Positions 2,170 to 54,259 of a DNA stretch of 64,000 bases are shown piece by piece. This stretch comes from a virus (lineage: Duplodnaviria > Heunggongvirae > Uroviricota > Caudoviricetes): the IMG/VR virus record IMGVR_UViG_2645727901_000008, one strand, 5' to 3'. The stretch's first letter is position 1. The number at the start of each line of letters is the position of its first letter. Below the pieces are notes generated by a model. The model was not told the origin of the DNA. It saw nothing but the letters and a program-made list of their open reading frames with translations, and made no database searches. The translations under genes and the position numbers were made by a program.

Positions 2170-2211
2170 CAATTGTGTTAGAAAATTCTATTCAATTATC
2201 TAACACAATTG
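2170..2211. promoter_or_regulatory. Bivalent copy of the dispersed 17-bp motif (candidate C1-type operator) just upstream of hrdC
   Basis: Perfect 13-bp inverted repeat CAATTGTGTTAGA (2170-2182) / TCTAACACAATTG (2199-2211) with a 16-bp spacer. On the hrdC strand the spacer contains TAGAAT, a -10-like hexamer. Confidence 0.5.
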
Positions 2212-5862: not shown

Positions 5863-6222
5863 ATGAACATTAAACCTATCCGTACAGAACAAGATTATGA
5901 GGCCGCACTGCGTGCGGTCGAACCGATGTTCGATAACGAACCGGAAATGAACACACCGGAAGGCGATTTCTTTGAAGTAATGTGCCTGCTCATTGAAGAG
6001 TACGAGAAAAAGCATTACCCAATTGAGCCACCATCACCTATTGAAGCCATTAAATTCCGTATGGAACAGCAAGGGCTGACCGTGAAGGATCTGGAACCGG
6101 CGATTGGTAAGTCAAATCGAGTTTACGAAGTGCTTAATGGGACACGAAATTTGACGTTACCTATGATTCGTCGTTTACATGCCCAGTTTGGTATTCCACT
6201 GGAAAGTCTGGTTGGTGTTTAA
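5863..6222 (+). CDS. higA: HigA-family antitoxin (XRE-type HTH)
   Basis: 119 aa, starts 3 nt after the higB stop. C-terminal HTH (LTVKDLEPAIGKSNRVYEVLNGTRNLTLPMIRRLHAQFGIP), the typical HigA layout. Confidence 0.85.
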   Translation: MNIKPIRTEQDYEAALRAVEPMFDNEPEMNTPEGDFFEVMCLLIEEYEKKHYPIEPPSPIEAIKFRMEQQGLTVKDLEPAIGKSNRVYEVLNGTRNLTLPMIRRLHAQFGIPLESLVGV

Positions 6223-14756: not shown

Positions 14757-14812
14757 ATTGGCAGCCTCCTTTGACTAAGTTAAGGAGCTACCGCGTGAGG
14801 TTCCAATCTCAA

Positions 14813-14892
14813 TGGCGGTAGCACTGACTGGGTTGGAACTACCGGCGTCAAAGGGAACCGGCCTGCCTTTCGGCAGCCCAGCCAGCACTACC
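14813..14892 (-). ncRNA. c4: c4-like antisense immunity RNA, module 1 (~77-80 nt)
   Basis: - 16-bp terminal helix GGUAGUGCUGGCUGGG / CCCAGUCAGUGCUACC, then GCCA.
- Internal CUGCC-GAAA-GGCAG hairpin.
- Loop CCUUUGAC and single-stranded GUUCCAA each have complements both upstream and downstream; the downstream copy overlaps the icd SD.
- Length fits the 77-nt P1 c4. Confidence 0.7.
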
Positions 14893-14941
14893 ATTGATCT
14901 CTGAGCTAAACGCTACGTATGGCTGTGCGATGGCATGACAC

Positions 14942-14963
14942 AAAAAAAGACGCTTTCGGCGTC
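14942..14963 (-). terminator. Hairpin plus U7 between the a1/b1 boxes and c4 (module 1)
   Basis: Minus strand: GACGC-CGAAA-GCGTC followed by TTTTTTT. Confidence 0.55.
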
Positions 14964-15068
14964 TGTGTCGCCTTTGACATTATCCGGGGTTCCAATCCCG
15001 GCACCCGTTTTTCTAAGGTGCCGTAGAAATATACCCCACGATAATGCCAGGGCGCAACAGTCAGTATT

Positions 15069-16194: not shown

Positions 16195-16224
16195 TGTTAG
16201 ATATTCAAAATTGATTTTCTAACA
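16195..16224. promoter_or_regulatory. Bivalent motif (candidate operator) overlapping a plus-strand sigma70-like promoter, between ref and the early operon
   Basis: TGTTAGA-N16-TCTAACA. TTGATT (16211-16216), 16 nt, TAATAT (16233-16238). Confidence 0.55.
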
Positions 16225-19530: not shown

Positions 19531-19560
19531 CGTTAGAACATTGATTTTAGTTTTCTAACA
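19531..19560. promoter_or_regulatory. Bivalent motif (candidate operator) upstream of the DUF968 gene
   Basis: CGTTAGA-N16-TCTAACA. TTGATT is embedded in the spacer, as at 16195. Confidence 0.5.
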
Positions 19561-20911: not shown

Positions 20912-21356
20912 CTATCAAGAACTGCGCGAGGCGGCGGAACAGGCAACGCAAGATGAATGGGTAGCATATATTTTGCCGGGTCATAACGGCATTTATCCTG
21001 CGCGCACGTCTGAAGGTAGGCATTGCGGATACTTTATTGACTGGCCTGGCATTGATGGACAAAGGAATGCTGGTGCTAATGCCCGTTATATCGCGGCTAT
21101 CCCACCAAAAGTTGCACTGTCACTCCTAGGCGAAATTAAGCGCCTGGAGGACAAAAATATTGATGCCATGTGCCAAATTGCAGAGCTGGAGAGCAATCGC
21201 GCGGCGCTGGCGGCGGAGCATGGTATTCAGATTGCAATAAATGAACTGCTTGCTCTGGCCCCGCGTCTGGATAAACGAGCGATGGATGCACTCTCTGTGG
21301 CTGTGGAGCACCTGTGTAAACTGATTAAGAAGGAGGCAGTCAGTGAGCAAAATTAA
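20898..21356 (+). CDS. Ead/Ea22-like protein (copy 1)
   Basis: GTG start. MSKINYQELREAAEQAT..W is the characteristic Ea22-like N-terminus. Coiled-coil centre. Confidence 0.55.
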   Translation: MSKINYQELREAAEQATQDEWVAYILPGHNGIYPARTSEGRHCGYFIDWPGIDGQRNAGANARYIAAIPPKVALSLLGEIKRLEDKNIDAMCQIAELESNRAALAAEHGIQIAINELLALAPRLDKRAMDALSVAVEHLCKLIKKEAVSEQN

Positions 21357-22407: not shown

Positions 22408-22667
22408 GTGAATTAAAGTGTCGAATTAATGGCAATCAGATAGAACCGTGTGCGGTACTGGCAAAAGCACTCGAATATGGAAATCCAGCCTTTAAGAGTA
22501 AAGGCATATTTATCCCGGAACGCGTGAATATAAATACCGGCGAGCCAGGCTTAGACATTGCTCAAATTCACTCCGGCCAATATGTCGGTCGTGGTGTTGC
22601 CATGTGTTTTTGCCCGTTCTGTGGTGAAAGTCTGAAAACATGGAAAAAGGAGGCAACCAGTGAGTGA
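22404..22667 (+). CDS. Small zinc-ribbon protein (paralogue of 20612-20911)
   Basis: GTG at 22404 overlaps the fragment's stop. VSELKCRINGNQIEPCAVLAKALE..FCPFCGESLKTWKKEATSE. Confidence 0.4.
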   Translation: MSELKCRINGNQIEPCAVLAKALEYGNPAFKSKGIFIPERVNINTGEPGLDIAQIHSGQYVGRGVAMCFCPFCGESLKTWKKEATSE

Positions 22668-26912: not shown

Positions 26913-26921
26913 GAGGTGTTT

Positions 26922-27143
26922 ATGCAATCCATTAACTTCCGTACCGCGCGTGGCAACCTTTCTGAAGTGCTCAACAATGTTGAAGCCGGGGAAGAGGTTG
27001 AAATCACCCGCAGAGGCCGTGAGCCAGCAGTAATTGTCAGCAAGGCTACTTTCGAAGCCTACAAAAAAGCGGCGCTGGATGCTGAATTTGCATCCCTGTT
27101 TGACACCCTGGACTCCACCAACAAGGAACTGGTTAACCGATAA
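26922..27143 (+). CDS. phd: Phd antitoxin
   Basis: [73 protein letters not shown] matches P1 Phd as I recall it. Confidence 0.9.
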
Positions 27144-27523
27144 TGAGGCATATATCACCGGAAGAACTTATTGCGCTTCATGATGCGAATATAAGCCGCT
27201 ACGGCGGCCTGCCGGGAATGTCAGATCCGGGTAGGGCAGAGGCCATTATCGGGAGAGTTCAGGCCAGAGTTGCCTACGACGAGATCACCGACCTTTTCGA
27301 AGTCTCCGCCACCTACCTGGTGGCTACGGCGAGAGGGCATATATTCAATGATGCCAATAAGCGTACCGCGCTAAACAGTGCGCTGCTATTTCTACGCCGT
27401 AACGGTATACAGGTATATGATTCTCCCGTGCTGGTGGAACTTGCGGTGGGGGCCGCAACTGGTGAAATCCCCGTATCTTCAGTAGCGGAAAAACTACGTG
27501 AATTATTTGGTTCCAATATTTGA
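27143..27523 (+). CDS. doc: Doc toxin (Fic-fold kinase)
   Basis: [11 protein letters not shown] Fic-type motif, 126 aa, TAATG-coupled to phd. Confidence 0.9.
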
Positions 27524-30478: not shown

Positions 30479-30495
30479 TGTTAGAAATTTAATTT
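30479..30495 (+). promoter_or_regulatory. 17-bp motif copy (candidate operator)
   Basis: TGTTAGAAATTTAATTT overlapping the recombinase stop, about 60 nt upstream of the 30420 start. Confidence 0.45.
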
Positions 30496-31522
30496 ATGAA
30501 TCCATCAGGCGGCTATTAGCCCCCACAGACACGCCGCCACGGCGCAGATACCGCATAAGTGTTTCCGGTTTCTTCCAGGTTCCTTCCTGCATGATCTCCA
30601 CCATAGACACCTGCTTTTCAGCCATATCGATAGCGGCCCCGACACGAGCACTATGCCCGGTCCACGTCCGGTATCTCCCTTTGTTTGGCGTGGCATCTCT
30701 TTTATTCAGCAACACCCAGGCGTCGCTGAATATTTTCTCCATTGCAGGTGCAGTAAGGGGAGTTGTCGTAATCCTGGCCTTATTGCTACGGTGTATCGGC
30801 GGGAACAGCACCGCGTCAGGATGTTCACGAAGCCCGGAAACATCCAGCCAGTCATTCAGCACTGCGGTAGTGCGACGGGAAAGCACCTTATCAAGCCCGG
30901 CGGCGGTCGTTATTGTCTTCGTGTGTGAAATATGTAGCGTGACAGTGTCACCTGTTTGGTCCAGATCTCCTACACGAATACGCGAGATTTCAGACATTCG
31001 CATCAGCGTATTGTATGCAACGAAGAGGAAAGCCCGGTTACGCAGGTCCACCAGCCGTTCTGACCTGGACAACAGGACGTCGAGCAGTTTCAGATCGTCC
31101 CACCGCAGCGGTATAGCCTGGCCTGTTCGTTCGCCTTTTTCCGTTGCCGCTTCGCGCCGGATGCGCCGCATAGCCAGAGAAACACTTTTATCATCCGAAA
31201 GTGGCGGAAGGCCACAATGCGAAAGCAGCATGTTAAGCATGGCGTAGTGCTTATCAATGGTGGTCGAAGCCAGATCAGCATCATGCAGCTGAAGAAAATA
31301 CTCGCGGGCCATCTCTGGTGAGATCGGGAACCAAGCGAGCTGGCGAGCGTGGCACCATCGCGCCCAGGAGTGAAACACTAACCGGAGATCGCGCAAAGTA
31401 TTCGGCGCGTAAGCCCCCTGGTCATTCATGAACCGCATAAAGTTTTCTGCGGCCTCCTGGTACTCTTTGCCAATGTTGCGCAGAAAACCACCGGAGCTGC
31501 CAGAGATAATTAATTCACTCAT
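30494..31522 (-). CDS. dre: Cre-family tyrosine recombinase; sequence recognised as Dre (phage D6)
   Basis: MSELIISGSSGGFLRNIGKEYQEAAENFMRF.. matches Dre as I remember it. Colinear with P1 Cre (SLAMRRIRRE, AYNTLMRMSEISRIRVGD, GHSARVGAAIDMA, catalytic Tyr in LMRYL). Confidence 0.85.
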   Translation of the reverse strand: MSELIISGSSGGFLRNIGKEYQEAAENFMRFMNDQGAYAPNTLRDLRLVFHSWARWCHARQLAWFPISPEMAREYFLQLHDADLASTTIDKHYAMLNMLLSHCGLPPLSDDKSVSLAMRRIRREAATEKGERTGQAIPLRWDDLKLLDVLLSRSERLVDLRNRAFLFVAYNTLMRMSEISRIRVGDLDQTGDTVTLHISHTKTITTAAGLDKVLSRRTTAVLNDWLDVSGLREHPDAVLFPPIHRSNKARITTTPLTAPAMEKIFSDAWVLLNKRDATPNKGRYRTWTGHSARVGAAIDMAEKQVSMVEIMQEGTWKKPETLMRYLRRGGVSVGANSRLMDS

Positions 31523-31673: not shown

Positions 31674-31705
31674 TAACTTTAAATAATGCCAATTATCTAA
31701 AGTTA
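31674..31705. other. rox-like recombination target (14-bp arms, 4-bp spacer), one arm mismatch
   Basis: TAACTTTAAATAAT-GCCA-ATTATCTAAAGTTA, 152 bp upstream of dre. The rox I recall is TAACTTTAAATAATGCCAATTATTTAAAGTTA. Confidence 0.8.
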
Positions 31706-31878
31706 GAAACTTAGGAATTTTTTTCCTTTCCCCGTAGATGGGCAATGCATTGCTGGCGTGGGCTTTAAGTTATGCCTGGCAGTTTTTAAGCAGAATTTTC
31801 TAAATTGGATGACAAAAAAATGCATCTTGATCCTTTACTCACCCTGTTATTCGGCATAGATTTGTCATAGTAATTTTA

Positions 31879-31895
31879 TGTTAGAAAACTAAATC
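31879..31895 (+). promoter_or_regulatory. 17-bp motif copy 12 nt upstream of the 345-aa gene; a degenerate copy lies at 31789-31805
   Basis: TGTTAGAAAACTAAATC. Upstream, on the minus strand, ATTTAGAAAATTCTGCT. Confidence 0.45.
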
Positions 31896-31906
31896 GAGTA
31901 GGAATA

Positions 31907-32944
31907 ATGAGTAAGAAGTCGATCGAGAAAGAGTACAAACGGTTCCTGCAAACCGCTGAACGGTGGAAAGAGCTGGTGGTCGCAAACTCTGTTTTCCATG
32001 ATACCAGTTATGCCGGCGAGGAATTCCGCCACGTTGCACTAACACATGATCAGAATGTACTAGAAGAAGCTGAAAAGTGCCTCACAGAATGGAAAGCCTT
32101 TGTTGACTTGTGCCGTAACGCTGACGGCAAAGCGTCCAACATTGTTGAGTCTGTATATTCTCCGATCCCATTCATTATTGAGGACACAAATCAAAGCACG
32201 CATATTGTTGTGCAAAGCGCGACCACCACCCGCTCATTTACGCGCGAAAATCTGCTCAAAAAATATGATGCAATTATAAAGAAAAGCCTGAAAAACAAGA
32301 TATTTTCGCAGATTGTTGGTGCACTTGAAGAAGAGCGCCGTTTTTTCGCATCAGAACCTGAAGGGGAAGTTTACCGGGCGCGCAAAGATGGATACACAGA
32401 TGTAGTGCTTACAACAAACATTGAAGGCAGCAATGCTCTGTCACGATTCAGGGTAGGCGCACACGGAGCCTTAGTGTTCGCAAAACTTCCGAACACCACA
32501 GTGCCCGTTGTTAATAATGTCGGCGAACGTCGCAGCATTACTATTTATTCTGGGGTTGAGTCGATACCTTGCGGCCTGCTTGGTGACTTTAGCCTCTATC
32601 GCGTTCGCGATCTGGAGAAACACCAACCAAGCTATGTTGCGAAGTCATATATCTTGCGAAACATCGACATCCGCAATGAGAGCTTAAAGAACAAATCAGC
32701 CAAAATGCTTGAGGAAGCCGATCCGGCTATTCGCCATATCATTGAGCGTAAAATACAGACAGCACGCGAAGCGATGGCGAGACTGAATAAAATGGATCTG
32801 GAGTTGTTAGACGTAATGATGACATCCGGAGATGACCTGACAGGCATAAAACTGACAGACGCGCGGAAAAGATACGGTAAAACCATAGAAGAACGTTACG
32901 GGTTCACTTTCTCCCAAACACAGCACGCCGCTAAACTCTGGTAA
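31907..32944 (+). CDS. Hypothetical 345-aa protein at the P1 c1 position (candidate immunity repressor by synteny only)
   Basis: Transcribed from the rox side towards pacB and convergent with it, as c1 is in P1. Motif copies lie upstream. I could not see similarity to P1 C1. Confidence 0.3.
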   Translation: MSKKSIEKEYKRFLQTAERWKELVVANSVFHDTSYAGEEFRHVALTHDQNVLEEAEKCLTEWKAFVDLCRNADGKASNIVESVYSPIPFIIEDTNQSTHIVVQSATTTRSFTRENLLKKYDAIIKKSLKNKIFSQIVGALEEERRFFASEPEGEVYRARKDGYTDVVLTTNIEGSNALSRFRVGAHGALVFAKLPNTTVPVVNNVGERRSITIYSGVESIPCGLLGDFSLYRVRDLEKHQPSYVAKSYILRNIDIRNESLKNKSAKMLEEADPAIRHIIERKIQTAREAMARLNKMDLELLDVMMTSGDDLTGIKLTDARKRYGKTIEERYGFTFSQTQHAAKLW

Positions 32945-32969
32945 TCACAAGCCCCGCATTGCCGGGGCT

Positions 32970-34478
32970 TTATATATCCAGATCTGGCATTTCCACATCT
33001 GCAAGAACCTGATCGCGGAAGGTAGCCATTTCAGCGCCGATATCTTCATTAGCAGGAACATAGTCCACCAGCATTGTAAAGCAGTAGGTATCCCATCGGT
33101 CAGGTGATTTGATGTTCAGCTTTTGCCGCATGTGCTCCTTGCGCATCATCGCCATCTTCCCTTCTTCATTAAGTAAAAAGGGGATTTTTGACGCTTGCTC
33201 TGCCGTTTTAGGGTCACTGTCTATTCGCATACGACCTGACTTTATGGCATCACGAGCCATAATATTTGCGTAGGCACGTTGGTTAACAAAACGCTCCTTG
33301 TCTTTGTTCGAAAACATGGGTTTCCCCCACCGAATACGTACCGGATTAGCCCCACGGCGCACCAGCTGCGCACAGGTATCTGAACCAAAACCGTCTGCGT
33401 CAACCGCGATTGTAATATTCGGGTATTTATCCGGCGTGCATTCGTTGTATATAAAGTCAGCAAAAGCCAGCGGGTCCATAGTCCCTGGCATTTCCATTAT
33501 CTTAAAGTTAACAACGCGCCGCTTATTCCTGTGACCTGACACCTTGCAGATGTTAAGGACCGACTTGTCTCGCCCGTTCCCAACGTCAGCTGTCGCTACC
33601 CACCCCCAATTTTTCTCCAACAACACCTTGCGCCGCGCAGCGCGATCGCATTCATCACGACCAAGCAAATAGCCGTTAATCTCCCGAGGGAACTGACCAA
33701 GCACCTTAACCATATACTCAATAGAATCGCGCCCGCCATATTCCAGGAGTTTCTGCCTGATGAATTGTGGTGTGACGAACGGTGATTCTTCTGAGTTAAG
33801 AACAATTGCTGTCCAGATCCCTTTCGGGTTGTCTGGGGTTTTAGCTTGAGAATGGTGCGAATCGTAGAAATAACCACTTGGCCTTGTTGGCTGGGATAGC
33901 ATCAACATTCGGTTATCTTCTTCAGTAAGAGCACCGGTCATTACGCCGATCGCCTTATCAGATATACCAGATGCTTCATCCAGAATTAGAAGCAAATGTG
34001 CCGCGTGTTCCCCCGCCAGCGCTTCTTCGTTGCCGAGTCGATAACCTTTGCAGAGAACTTCCCAAATCCCCTTACGGGAGCGCTCATAAAACATGGTGTC
34101 AGAGAGGACAAAATAGGTCTGCAACCACCCATGACGCTTAACTGCATTCGCCCAATACTGTTTAACGTATTTGAATACGCCTGTTTTTACCTGGCCTATC
34201 TTGTTAGCAACAATGATGACACGGGCATCGGGGAACAGGATCATAAAAATCAACAGCAACATCGCGGTAAGGGACGACTTCCCCGTTCCGTGTCCGGACG
34301 TGACGGTAGTCCTACTCCCCGTTTCCTGCACTGACTGAATGATCTGCTGCTGCTGGTGGGAGGGGAACATCCCAAAAATATCGACAACAGCCTGGGTAAA
34401 GTTGTAGCGGTATTTGATTACCATATCGCGCCAGCGTGGATCGCTGGTGACGCATTTAATCTTGCGCCCGCCAGCCAT
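32970..34478 (-). CDS. pacB: Terminase large subunit PacB
   Basis: Walker A TSGHGTGKSS, Walker B LLLILDEASG, 502 aa, ATGA-coupled to pacA. Confidence 0.85.
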   Translation of the reverse strand: MAGGRKIKCVTSDPRWRDMVIKYRYNFTQAVVDIFGMFPSHQQQQIIQSVQETGSRTTVTSGHGTGKSSLTAMLLLIFMILFPDARVIIVANKIGQVKTGVFKYVKQYWANAVKRHGWLQTYFVLSDTMFYERSRKGIWEVLCKGYRLGNEEALAGEHAAHLLLILDEASGISDKAIGVMTGALTEEDNRMLMLSQPTRPSGYFYDSHHSQAKTPDNPKGIWTAIVLNSEESPFVTPQFIRQKLLEYGGRDSIEYMVKVLGQFPREINGYLLGRDECDRAARRKVLLEKNWGWVATADVGNGRDKSVLNICKVSGHRNKRRVVNFKIMEMPGTMDPLAFADFIYNECTPDKYPNITIAVDADGFGSDTCAQLVRRGANPVRIRWGKPMFSNKDKERFVNQRAYANIMARDAIKSGRMRIDSDPKTAEQASKIPFLLNEEGKMAMMRKEHMRQKLNIKSPDRWDTYCFTMLVDYVPANEDIGAEMATFRDQVLADVEMPDLDI

Positions 34479-43320: not shown

Positions 43321-43581
43321 TTAATGGTTTATTTTATCAGGTTCGTTAATTTCCGTAACCGCCTTGTCGATAGCAATCATCCATCCTTCATAGGATAAAT
43401 CATCAACAAGTCCCACCAGCTTATCGTCAGTGTGCGGAAAATAAATCCATCCCCATTTCGAAGGGTTTCCTATATGCCGCAGGGTAAATACCCGCTTATA
43501 ACGGTGGTATTCAAGGGCGTATCCCTTCCCTTGTGAGTACGCTTTTAAGTCGTCGATCGTAAACCTACGATTCTTCCGCAT
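43321..43581 (-). CDS. Hypothetical protein
   Basis: 86-aa ORF, 2 nt after the upstream stop. Confidence 0.3.
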   Translation of the reverse strand: MRKNRRFTIDDLKAYSQGKGYALEYHRYKRVFTLRHIGNPSKWGWIYFPHTDDKLVGLVDDLSYEGWMIAIDKAVTEINEPDKINH

Positions 43582-52692: not shown

Positions 52693-52740
52693 AGTTACGG
52701 CCTCACTAACAGGTTTAACAACCTGCTACCCGCTGCTAAA

Positions 52741-52819
52741 CAGGTGGCAGGACGTGACGGGGTTAGCAGACTGGCGTTAGTGAAACCAGCAGGCCGAAGC
52801 CTCCCCATCACGCCCCACC
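52741..52819 (-). ncRNA. c4: c4-like antisense immunity RNA, module 2 (~77 nt)
   Basis: Same architecture as module 1: terminal helix GGUGG..GCGUGAUGGGG / CCCCGUCACGU..CCACC, a GGC-UUCG-GCC hairpin, loop CACUAAC and single-stranded CUGCUAA. Each has complements upstream (52888, 52902) and downstream (52704 over the SD, 52733). Confidence 0.65.
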
Positions 52820-52851
52820 ATAATTTGGGCGTAACGCGGTTTTACGGACAC

Positions 52852-52880
52852 AAAAATACCGCAATATCGGATATCTGCGG
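52852..52880 (-). terminator. Hairpin plus U-run between the a1/b1 boxes and c4 (module 2)
   Basis: Minus strand: CCGCA..TGCGG followed by TATTTTTG. Positional equivalent of 14942-14963. Confidence 0.4.
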
Positions 52881-53022
52881 TTGTCCGCACTAACATTCAG
52901 GCTGCTAAACCCGGTCGCAGAATTTGCTACGACGACATGAATATAAGCCTGAAAACATGGAAGATCAACTAAAAATTTCAGCAATAGATGACTTCAGTCG
53001 ATGATGCAGATCATACATTCCG

Positions 53023-53052
53023 ATTTAGAAACGGCAAATTAATTTTCTAACA
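53023..53052. promoter_or_regulatory. Bivalent motif (candidate operator) upstream of immI-like module 2
   Basis: ATTTAGA-N16-TCTAACA. The minus-strand half is the exact consensus TGTTAGAAAATTAATTT. This is the position of P1 Op51. Confidence 0.5.
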
Positions 53053-54242: not shown

Positions 54243-54259
54243 TGTTAGAAATTTAATTT
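54243..54259 (+). promoter_or_regulatory. 17-bp motif copy
   Basis: TGTTAGAAATTTAATTT, preceded by the palindrome AGTGTATATAAATACACT. Confidence 0.45.

Follow-up and report, generated by a model that had tools for sequence, protein, structure and literature searches.

A D6-type c1 gene as the probable primary immunity repressor gene of a P1-family plasmid prophage, and its predicted operators

We analysed a 64,000-nucleotide (nt) stretch of DNA from a tailed-phage record (IMG/VR IMGVR_UViG_2645727901_000008; this whole stretch is called the window below), focusing on an open reading frame (ORF) of 345 amino acids (aa) and the regulatory sequences around it. The ORF is present at 31907..32944 on the plus strand. 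To its right lies pacB (32970..34478, minus strand), which is convergent with it, followed by pacA and lpa; to its left, in divergent orientation, lies the gene for a 342-aa tyrosine recombinase (30494..31522, minus strand) that is 100% identical to Dre of phage D6. The rox site for Dre was located at 31674..31705 by alignment with the annotated D6 rox and by its inverted repeat. A preliminary description, made from the letters and a list of ORFs, had stated that the 345-aa ORF is the only gene between the rox-like site and pacB, and this is borne out: it is the sole ORF longer than 40 aa in that interval, the remaining ORFs there being 40 aa or shorter. The window is collinear with positions 61941–91159 and then 1–32242 of phage D6 (MF356679), mostly at 94–97% identity, and the segment from the pac genes to dre was found in 148 plasmid records from Escherichia coli, Salmonella, Shigella and Enterobacter (best match 97.8%). 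The collinearity and the plasmid matches together place the window within a D6-like plasmid prophage of the P1 family. The order recombinase, repressor gene (c1), pacB, pacA and lpa is also kept in four relatives with 45–52% protein identity; one of the contigs in this comparison (P0009) breaks off inside the gene upstream of c1, which is partial there.

By sequence comparison, the 345-aa gene is a member, as an allelic variant, of the already known D6-type C1 and the orthologue of annotated D6 c1, and we refer to it as c1. The D6 protein is likewise 345 aa long and shares 89.9% aa identity with it over 345 aa (AAV84948.1 in AY753669; ASR76322.1, D6_1, in MF356679). In 2004 the D6 gene received the annotation 'c1, phage repressor protein; similar to the C1 repressor of phage P1', and the complete genome MF356679 lists it as 'prophage repressor'; many RefSeq plasmid copies carry the label 'hypothetical protein' only. 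The gene had initially been called an orphan without recognisable similarity to P1 C1. Both statements are contradicted: it belongs to the family PF27008 (Phage_P7_repressor_C1), which is carried by all homologues of both the D6-type protein and P1 C1, it occurs in the 148 sequenced plasmids, and BLASTP against P1 C1 aligned 239 collinear aa at 20% identity (expect value (E) 8e-8). A profile comparison with the P1 C1 family, which the preliminary description had proposed together with a structural one, gave an hhalign probability of 98.4% (E 7.6e-15) between the D6-type and P1-type family profiles, with aa 7–242 aligned to aa 8–247 of P1 C1. Both the 345-aa protein (E 4.7e-159) and P1 C1 matched PHROG 1678 along their entire length, and the NCBIfam model of P1 C1, NF041318, matched aa 7–240 weakly (23.1 bits, E 4.5e-5). 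Profile searching of 1.84 billion representatives returned 104 relatives that form a continuum of long (about 345–380 aa) and short (about 250–290 aa) forms, and the same search recovered a P1-type member at E 9e-13. Six independent lines of sequence evidence thus identify the 345-aa protein as a distant but secure homologue of P1 C1. Two further searches fell short of this relationship: tblastn of the ORF over 50,697 phage records failed to retrieve P1 c1, so that a direct comparison was needed, and a local Pfam search gave no match for either protein, PF27008 being known from precomputed annotations only. With P1 C1 as the query, no clear c1 homologue was found elsewhere, the only matching place in the whole window and in the complete D6 genome being c1 itself, which makes it unlikely that the repressor lies outside the window and the 345-aa gene is a mere target of it, as had been considered.

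The gene differs from D6 c1 more than its surroundings do. Nucleotide identity between the two c1 genes is 84%, with a synonymous divergence (dS) of 0.94, whereas dS for the flanking dre, pacB, pacA and lpa is 0.01–0.25, which points to an older allele set in a nearly D6-identical backbone. The ratio of non-synonymous to synonymous divergence (dN/dS) relative to D6 c1 is 0.06, so the gene encodes a constrained protein; judged from these substitutions, the ORF is real and under strong purifying selection. About 90 base pairs (bp) to the right of rox (about 31706–31790) do not align with D6, and rox itself carries one substitution relative to D6 rox, at 31697, the right arm reading ATTATCTAAAGTTA here and ATTATTTAAAGTTA in D6; the Dre target is thus altered although the Dre protein is 100% identical to that of D6. 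The rox site has the appearance of a mosaic junction, and c1 that of an exchanged older allele with unchanged operator specificity.

Sites resembling a 17-bp motif recur across the window. Allowing up to 3 mismatches to the consensus of the preliminary description, we counted 13 sites against 0.36 expected, a number that no shuffle out of 100 attained. There is hardly any variation at the positions TGTTAGAAA, and the D6-type operator consensus is TGTTAGAAAAYTAATTT, asymmetric and about 17 bp long (full consensus operator sequence, TGTTAGAAAATTAATTT). The motif is also present at the corresponding places in D6, in many cases letter for letter the same. A weight-matrix scan added weaker partner sites (13–17 sites in all) and yielded four overlapping inverted pairs (2176/2189, 16195/16208, 19531/19544 and 36310/36323), each offset by exactly 13 bp with a 4-bp overlap. 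According to the D6 annotation and Rfam, sites precede c1, the lpa, repL and ref homologues, the c4-a1b1/C4 RNA locus and hrdC-like and pdcB-like genes; further sites lie at the block downstream of dre and around pmgS. From this pattern of occurrence, the motif is predicted to be a genuine operator on the scale of a regulon. Its core, TGTTAGAAAA, is also the most frequent 10-mer in the locus of one relative (L006) and among the most frequent in that of another (L007). A role as a late-promoter element was considered and rejected, since the sites precede early and immunity genes and the −22 box of P1 late promoters is unrelated.

The individual predicted operators correspond closely to sites in D6. 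Upstream of lpa, an overlapping inverted pair occupies 36310–36326 (plus strand) and 36323–36339 (minus strand); its strong half is identical in D6, and P1 has Olpa at the equivalent place. A perfect-consensus operator at 53036..53052 (minus strand; D6 equivalent 21260–21276) stands upstream of the c4-a1b1 element and C4 RNA locus and is the apparent analogue of the P1 operator at the c4-icd-ant immunity region. The site upstream of the repL homologue lies at 54243..54259 (plus strand) and corresponds to D6 22467–22483, upstream of repL (D6_20). Overlapping inverted pairs are further found upstream of the ref homologue (16195..16224; D6 76630–76646, upstream of D6_87 ref), upstream of the pdcB-like gene (19531..19560; identical pair in D6 at 80709–80738) and upstream of the hrdC-like gene (2176..2205; D6 equivalent 64116–64145). 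Finally, a site at the dre stop codon, upstream of the orf2-orf3-dut block (30479..30495, plus strand), is identical to D6 89948–89964. Phage D6 C1 agrees with the protein studied here in length, in its position between rox/dre and pacB and in the genome-wide placement of the motif.

The same arrangement, with another operator sequence, is known from P1. P1 C1 binds 22 dispersed operators with the asymmetric 17-bp consensus ATTGCTCTAATAAATTT and controls RepL and Lpa (PMC8546580), and in the P1 record operators are marked upstream of lpa, with a cluster of them upstream of c1. C1 of P1 and P7 (283 aa), which shares a core of about 240 aa with the D6-type protein, is likewise encoded convergently with pacB at the same map position, and its operators, like those of D6 type, are dispersed, asymmetric and 17 bp long, with some overlapping inverted pairs and with sites before lpa and c1. 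They differ in sequence (ATTGCTCTAATAAATTT in P1 and TGTTAGAAAAYTAATTT in the D6 type) and in the offset of inverted pairs, which is 11 bp for P1 Oc1a/Oc1b and 13 bp for the D6-type pairs. The P1-type operator is essentially absent from the window, a single match with 4 mismatches having been found in the 64 kilobases (kb). A P1-like regulon that lacks P1-type operators would mean that this element has a P1-like repressor regulon of different specificity. One P1-type relative has a CTCTAAAAAATTT-type site before its c1. In front of the c1 homologue of P0027 (53% identical to P1 C1; locus L012, about 5900–5960) lies a palindromic GCTCTAAAAAATTTATTTTTTTAGAGA, which looks like a variant P1-type overlapping inverted pair; this suggests that the operator sequence tracks the C1 subfamily. 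The locus of a short homologue with 30% identity (P0012, locus L011) showed no clear copy of either operator type. When the P1 and D6-type consensus sequences were aligned with each other, forward and reverse registers both gave partial AT-rich matches, and we make no claim from them. We also observed a D6-type operator-like core, TGTTAGATAAAATTG, in the lpa promoter region of P1 (locus L002, about 1893–1909), just upstream of Olpa and overlapping its 5′ end, which may be a coincidence in AT-rich DNA. A text search for TGTTAGAAAA together with 'repressor', which did not cover the original D6 papers, returned unrelated papers only.

Two sites lie before c1 itself. The proximal operator, TGTTAGAAAACTAAATC (31879..31895, plus strand), scores 24.0 bits on the weight matrix, with 3 mismatches to the initial consensus, and is identical at the same place in D6. 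A strong copy before the ATG had been noted earlier; the copy is there, and it ends 11 nt, not 12, before the start codon. The degenerate copy reported about 75 nt further upstream corresponds to an operator remnant, ATTTAGAAAATTCTGCT (31789..31805, minus strand), which proved to be inverted, with 6 mismatches and 3.2 bits, and whose position recurs in relatives. We compared the loci of relatives whose C1 proteins are 72, 52, 50, 48 and 45% identical, in an alignment (A4) of 7 lineages that spans 45–100% protein identity. The TGTTAGAAAA core precedes c1, invariant, in 7/7 lineages, about 27–35 nt before the true start in the relatives. A full inverted core, TTTCTAACA, lies 83–95 bp upstream of the direct copy in three relatives (L006, L008 and L007; proteins 45–52% identical), and a degenerate inverted core lies at 82 bp in both D6 and the window. 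The alignment thus indicates that diverged relatives have kept the position of the distal inverted site. From there to the proximal site, conservation is limited to two blocks, TTTACT and, 17 nt further on, TA(G/A)ATT, with diverged flanks; here they form a candidate c1 promoter at 31834..31862 on the plus strand (TTTACT, 31834–31839; 17-nt spacer; TAGATT, 31857–31862), which we infer from these blocks. Both this candidate promoter region and the proximal operator are identical in D6. A Shine–Dalgarno sequence, AGGA (31900..31903, plus strand), was read from the sequence at a purine-rich block conserved in the alignment. The suggested likeness to the Op99 cluster of P1 is reasonable, and the arrangement here is simpler: P1 c1 is preceded by the five-site cluster Oc1a–e, whereas the D6-type gene has one good site and one degenerate inverted site. 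A further operator-like core, AAGTTAGAAACTT, at 31700–31712, partly within the end of the right arm of rox, pairs with 31794–31806 as an inverted repeat; it is probably due to chance, because it is not conserved in D6.

The predicted protein structure separates the part shared with P1 C1 from a part that P1 C1 lacks. Profile alignments (hhalign, NF041318), an AlphaFold2 model and matches to the replication terminator protein Tus delimit an alpha/beta core, aa 1–242 (31907..32632, plus strand), with a predicted Tus-like fold, followed by a C-terminal extension, aa 243–345 (32633..32941, plus strand), that is found in the long D6-type form only. This extension of about 100 aa is kept in all long-form homologues and modelled with a predicted local distance difference test score (pLDDT) of 88–94; it has no counterpart in P1 C1, which ends instead in a low-confidence basic tail. 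The whole model has a mean pLDDT of 86.6 and a predicted template modelling score of 0.56, and consists of alpha/beta structure to about residue 232, long helices at 233–270 and 276–306 and three short helices within 316–342. Foldseek against PDB gave four matches at E ≤ 0.001, all of them E. coli Tus (2.9e-7 to 7.9e-6), the next match being at E 0.15. For the D6-type and the P1-type model alike, no solved structure other than Tus matched significantly, and the two models share one alignment and are therefore not fully independent. Template modelling scores to Tus are low (0.33–0.44), the likeness comes from predicted models only, and E. coli Tus (PDB 1ecr, 4xr0) has no sequence similarity to C1 and arrests replication forks, whereas C1 represses transcription. 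Comparison of a 93-sequence C1 profile with Tus by hhalign was not significant (probability 1.75%), the C1 profile found no match among PDB sequences, and a literature search found no paper linking C1 and Tus. The earlier failure to recognise a classical helix–turn–helix (HTH) was correct: no Pfam domain of this kind was matched and no HTH protein appeared among the structural matches, and P1/P7 C1 likewise has no HTH and a predicted fold matching Tus. According to older literature, P1 C1 binds its asymmetric site as a monomer and has no HTH, properties that a Tus-like fold, which remains a prediction, would fit. We consider it possible, with clearly less than even confidence, that P1-type and D6-type C1 are Tus-fold proteins that, as monomers, read long asymmetric operators through inter-domain beta-strands as Tus reads Ter, and that the C-terminal helical domain of the D6 type replaces the P1 partner protein Lxc by self-association or by clamping DNA.

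P1 has coi, imcA, imcB and lxc, of which none was found in the window or in D6; Coi is the antirepressor of P1 and Lxc its corepressor. Searches by tblastn with P1 Coi, ImcA and ImcB were negative for the window and for the complete D6 genome (best E 0.87), in agreement with the earlier remark that no coi-like ORF is visible, and no Lxc homologue was found by tblastn in the same sequences. The P1 gene order is darB-ulx-lxc; in the window, darB is followed by a ulx homologue (46% identity) and then, at the lxc position, by an 86-aa ORF (43321..43581, minus strand). Compared with P1 Lxc (82 aa), this ORF gave E 5.3 and falls in a different PHROG (6844 as against 2160), and we rejected it as an Lxc homologue; its place immediately after the ulx homologue could make it a positional analogue. 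The C-terminal domain of C1 (aa 233–345) gave no alignment with P1 Lxc or Coi at E ≤ 100. Two C4 antisense RNA genes were seen, at 14811–15021 and 52740–52946 (both minus strand), one adjoining an isrK-like RNA and the other the a1b1 target element. They point to two P1-type c4/antirepressor immunity modules, as do the two icd/antirepressor pairs annotated in D6.

Taken together, we consider it very probable that the window belongs to a phage-D6-like, P1-family plasmid prophage and that the 345-aa gene is its c1, encoding the primary immunity repressor that silences lytic functions in the lysogen. C1 would bind the asymmetric, approximately 17-bp operator TGTTAGAAAAYTAATTT, probably as a monomer like P1 C1, through its non-HTH, Tus-like alpha/beta core. 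Since the operators stand singly or as inverted pairs with a 13-bp offset at the promoters of lpa, repL, the c4/antirepressor region, ref and others, their occupancy would block the early lytic programme. The gene may also control itself. Its candidate promoter lies between the degenerate inverted site, about 70 bp upstream, and the strong site, which, counted from a predicted transcription start at about 31869, would cover about +10 to +26, immediately ahead of the ribosome-binding site. In this arrangement the repressor would shut off transcription of c1, and looping of the DNA between the two operators may assist it. More speculatively, the added helical domain at the C terminus may do the work of a partner protein, for instance by self-association or by stabilising C1 on DNA.

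Several observations weigh against this interpretation. The 3 mismatches of the proximal operator to the consensus lie in its 3′ half; the distal site, taken alone, is indistinguishable from chance; and the candidate c1 promoter matches 8/12 consensus positions, too few for the consensus scan to report it. At 23.1 bits, the protein is far below the 500-bit equivalog cut-off of NF041318, and D6-type C1 is therefore not an equivalog of P1 C1. Neither Coi nor Lxc, the partner proteins of P1, has a homologue in the window or in D6, so the circuit cannot be identical to that of P1. A literature search, with the original D6 papers outside it, found no binding, repression or immunity experiment.

The alternative that survives best, although we regard it as unlikely, is that the gene is of the C1 family and the TGTTAGAAAA motif is bound by another regulator, of the element or of the host, with c1 merely one of its targets. 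The binding of the motif by C1 is itself deduced, the window covers about 64 of about 91 kb, and the first bases of the motif and its flanks often form a −10-like TATGTT, so that part of its conservation could reflect promoter function. Against this, the complete D6 genome, where P1 C1 has no second match, lists no repressor candidate beyond c1 except HigA antitoxins; the motif shares length, asymmetry, dispersal, overlapping inverted pairs and target genes with the operators of P1 C1 (PMC8546580); and its core stays with D6-type c1 across lineages of 45–100% identity, whereas the P1-type relative has the CTCTAAAAAATTT-type site instead. Less probable still, to a degree that makes it very hard to credit, is a gene that has lost or changed its repressor role, for example through its C-terminal domain, with immunity coming mainly from the two c4 RNA/antirepressor loci. 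The 100-aa extension without an assigned function, the two C4 RNA loci and the absence of Coi and Lxc would suit such a change. However, the c4/ant system of P1 acts by antagonising C1 (PMC8546580) and hence presupposes a C1-type repressor, the C1 core is under strong purifying selection and retains the residues invariant in both the D6-type and P1-type families (R41, R157, R159, P86, P88 and G187), and the operator precedes c1 in every lineage examined. That the ORF is an orphan, non-homologous gene merely filling the c1 slot deserves almost no credence: the tblastn and local Pfam results described above would allow it, and it is refuted by BLASTP, PHROG, NCBIfam, hhalign and the full-library profile search, all of which tie the ORF to P1 C1. 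The preliminary description had left the choice between a highly diverged and a non-homologous repressor that recognises the motif; homology to P1 C1, the 89.9% identity to D6 c1 and the nature of the target genes favour a diverged repressor, the non-homologous option is wrong, and recognition of the motif is a prediction.

The surroundings of c1 hold several other features. A GC-rich hairpin at 32949..32970 (8-bp stem, 6-nt loop, −16 kcal/mol, z = −3.0) separates the stop codons of the convergent c1 and pacB and is a probable terminator. A near-consensus sigma-70 promoter directed toward dre (31692–31665, minus strand; TTGGCA-16-TATAAT, 11/12 positions) has its −35 hexamer in the spacer and the edge of the right arm of rox, so that rox overlaps the dre promoter. 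Farther away, a cluster of four tRNA genes (37765–39613, minus strand) and a phd/doc-type addiction module (26916–27523, plus strand) are present, as in D6 and P1.

Naming the D6-type gene as a C1-type repressor gene is a useful correction, because 'hypothetical protein' is the label of most RefSeq copies on D6-like plasmids. Together with its target sites, the D6-type operator consensus predicted here would define the immunity specificity of a group of phage-plasmids in E. coli, Salmonella, Shigella and Enterobacter, a group that appears to run a P1-like circuit without Coi or Lxc. Should the Tus-like prediction be confirmed by a structure, it would account for the ability of P1 C1 to recognise an asymmetric site while lacking an HTH, and C1 repressors would then be the first relatives or analogues of Tus outside replication termination.
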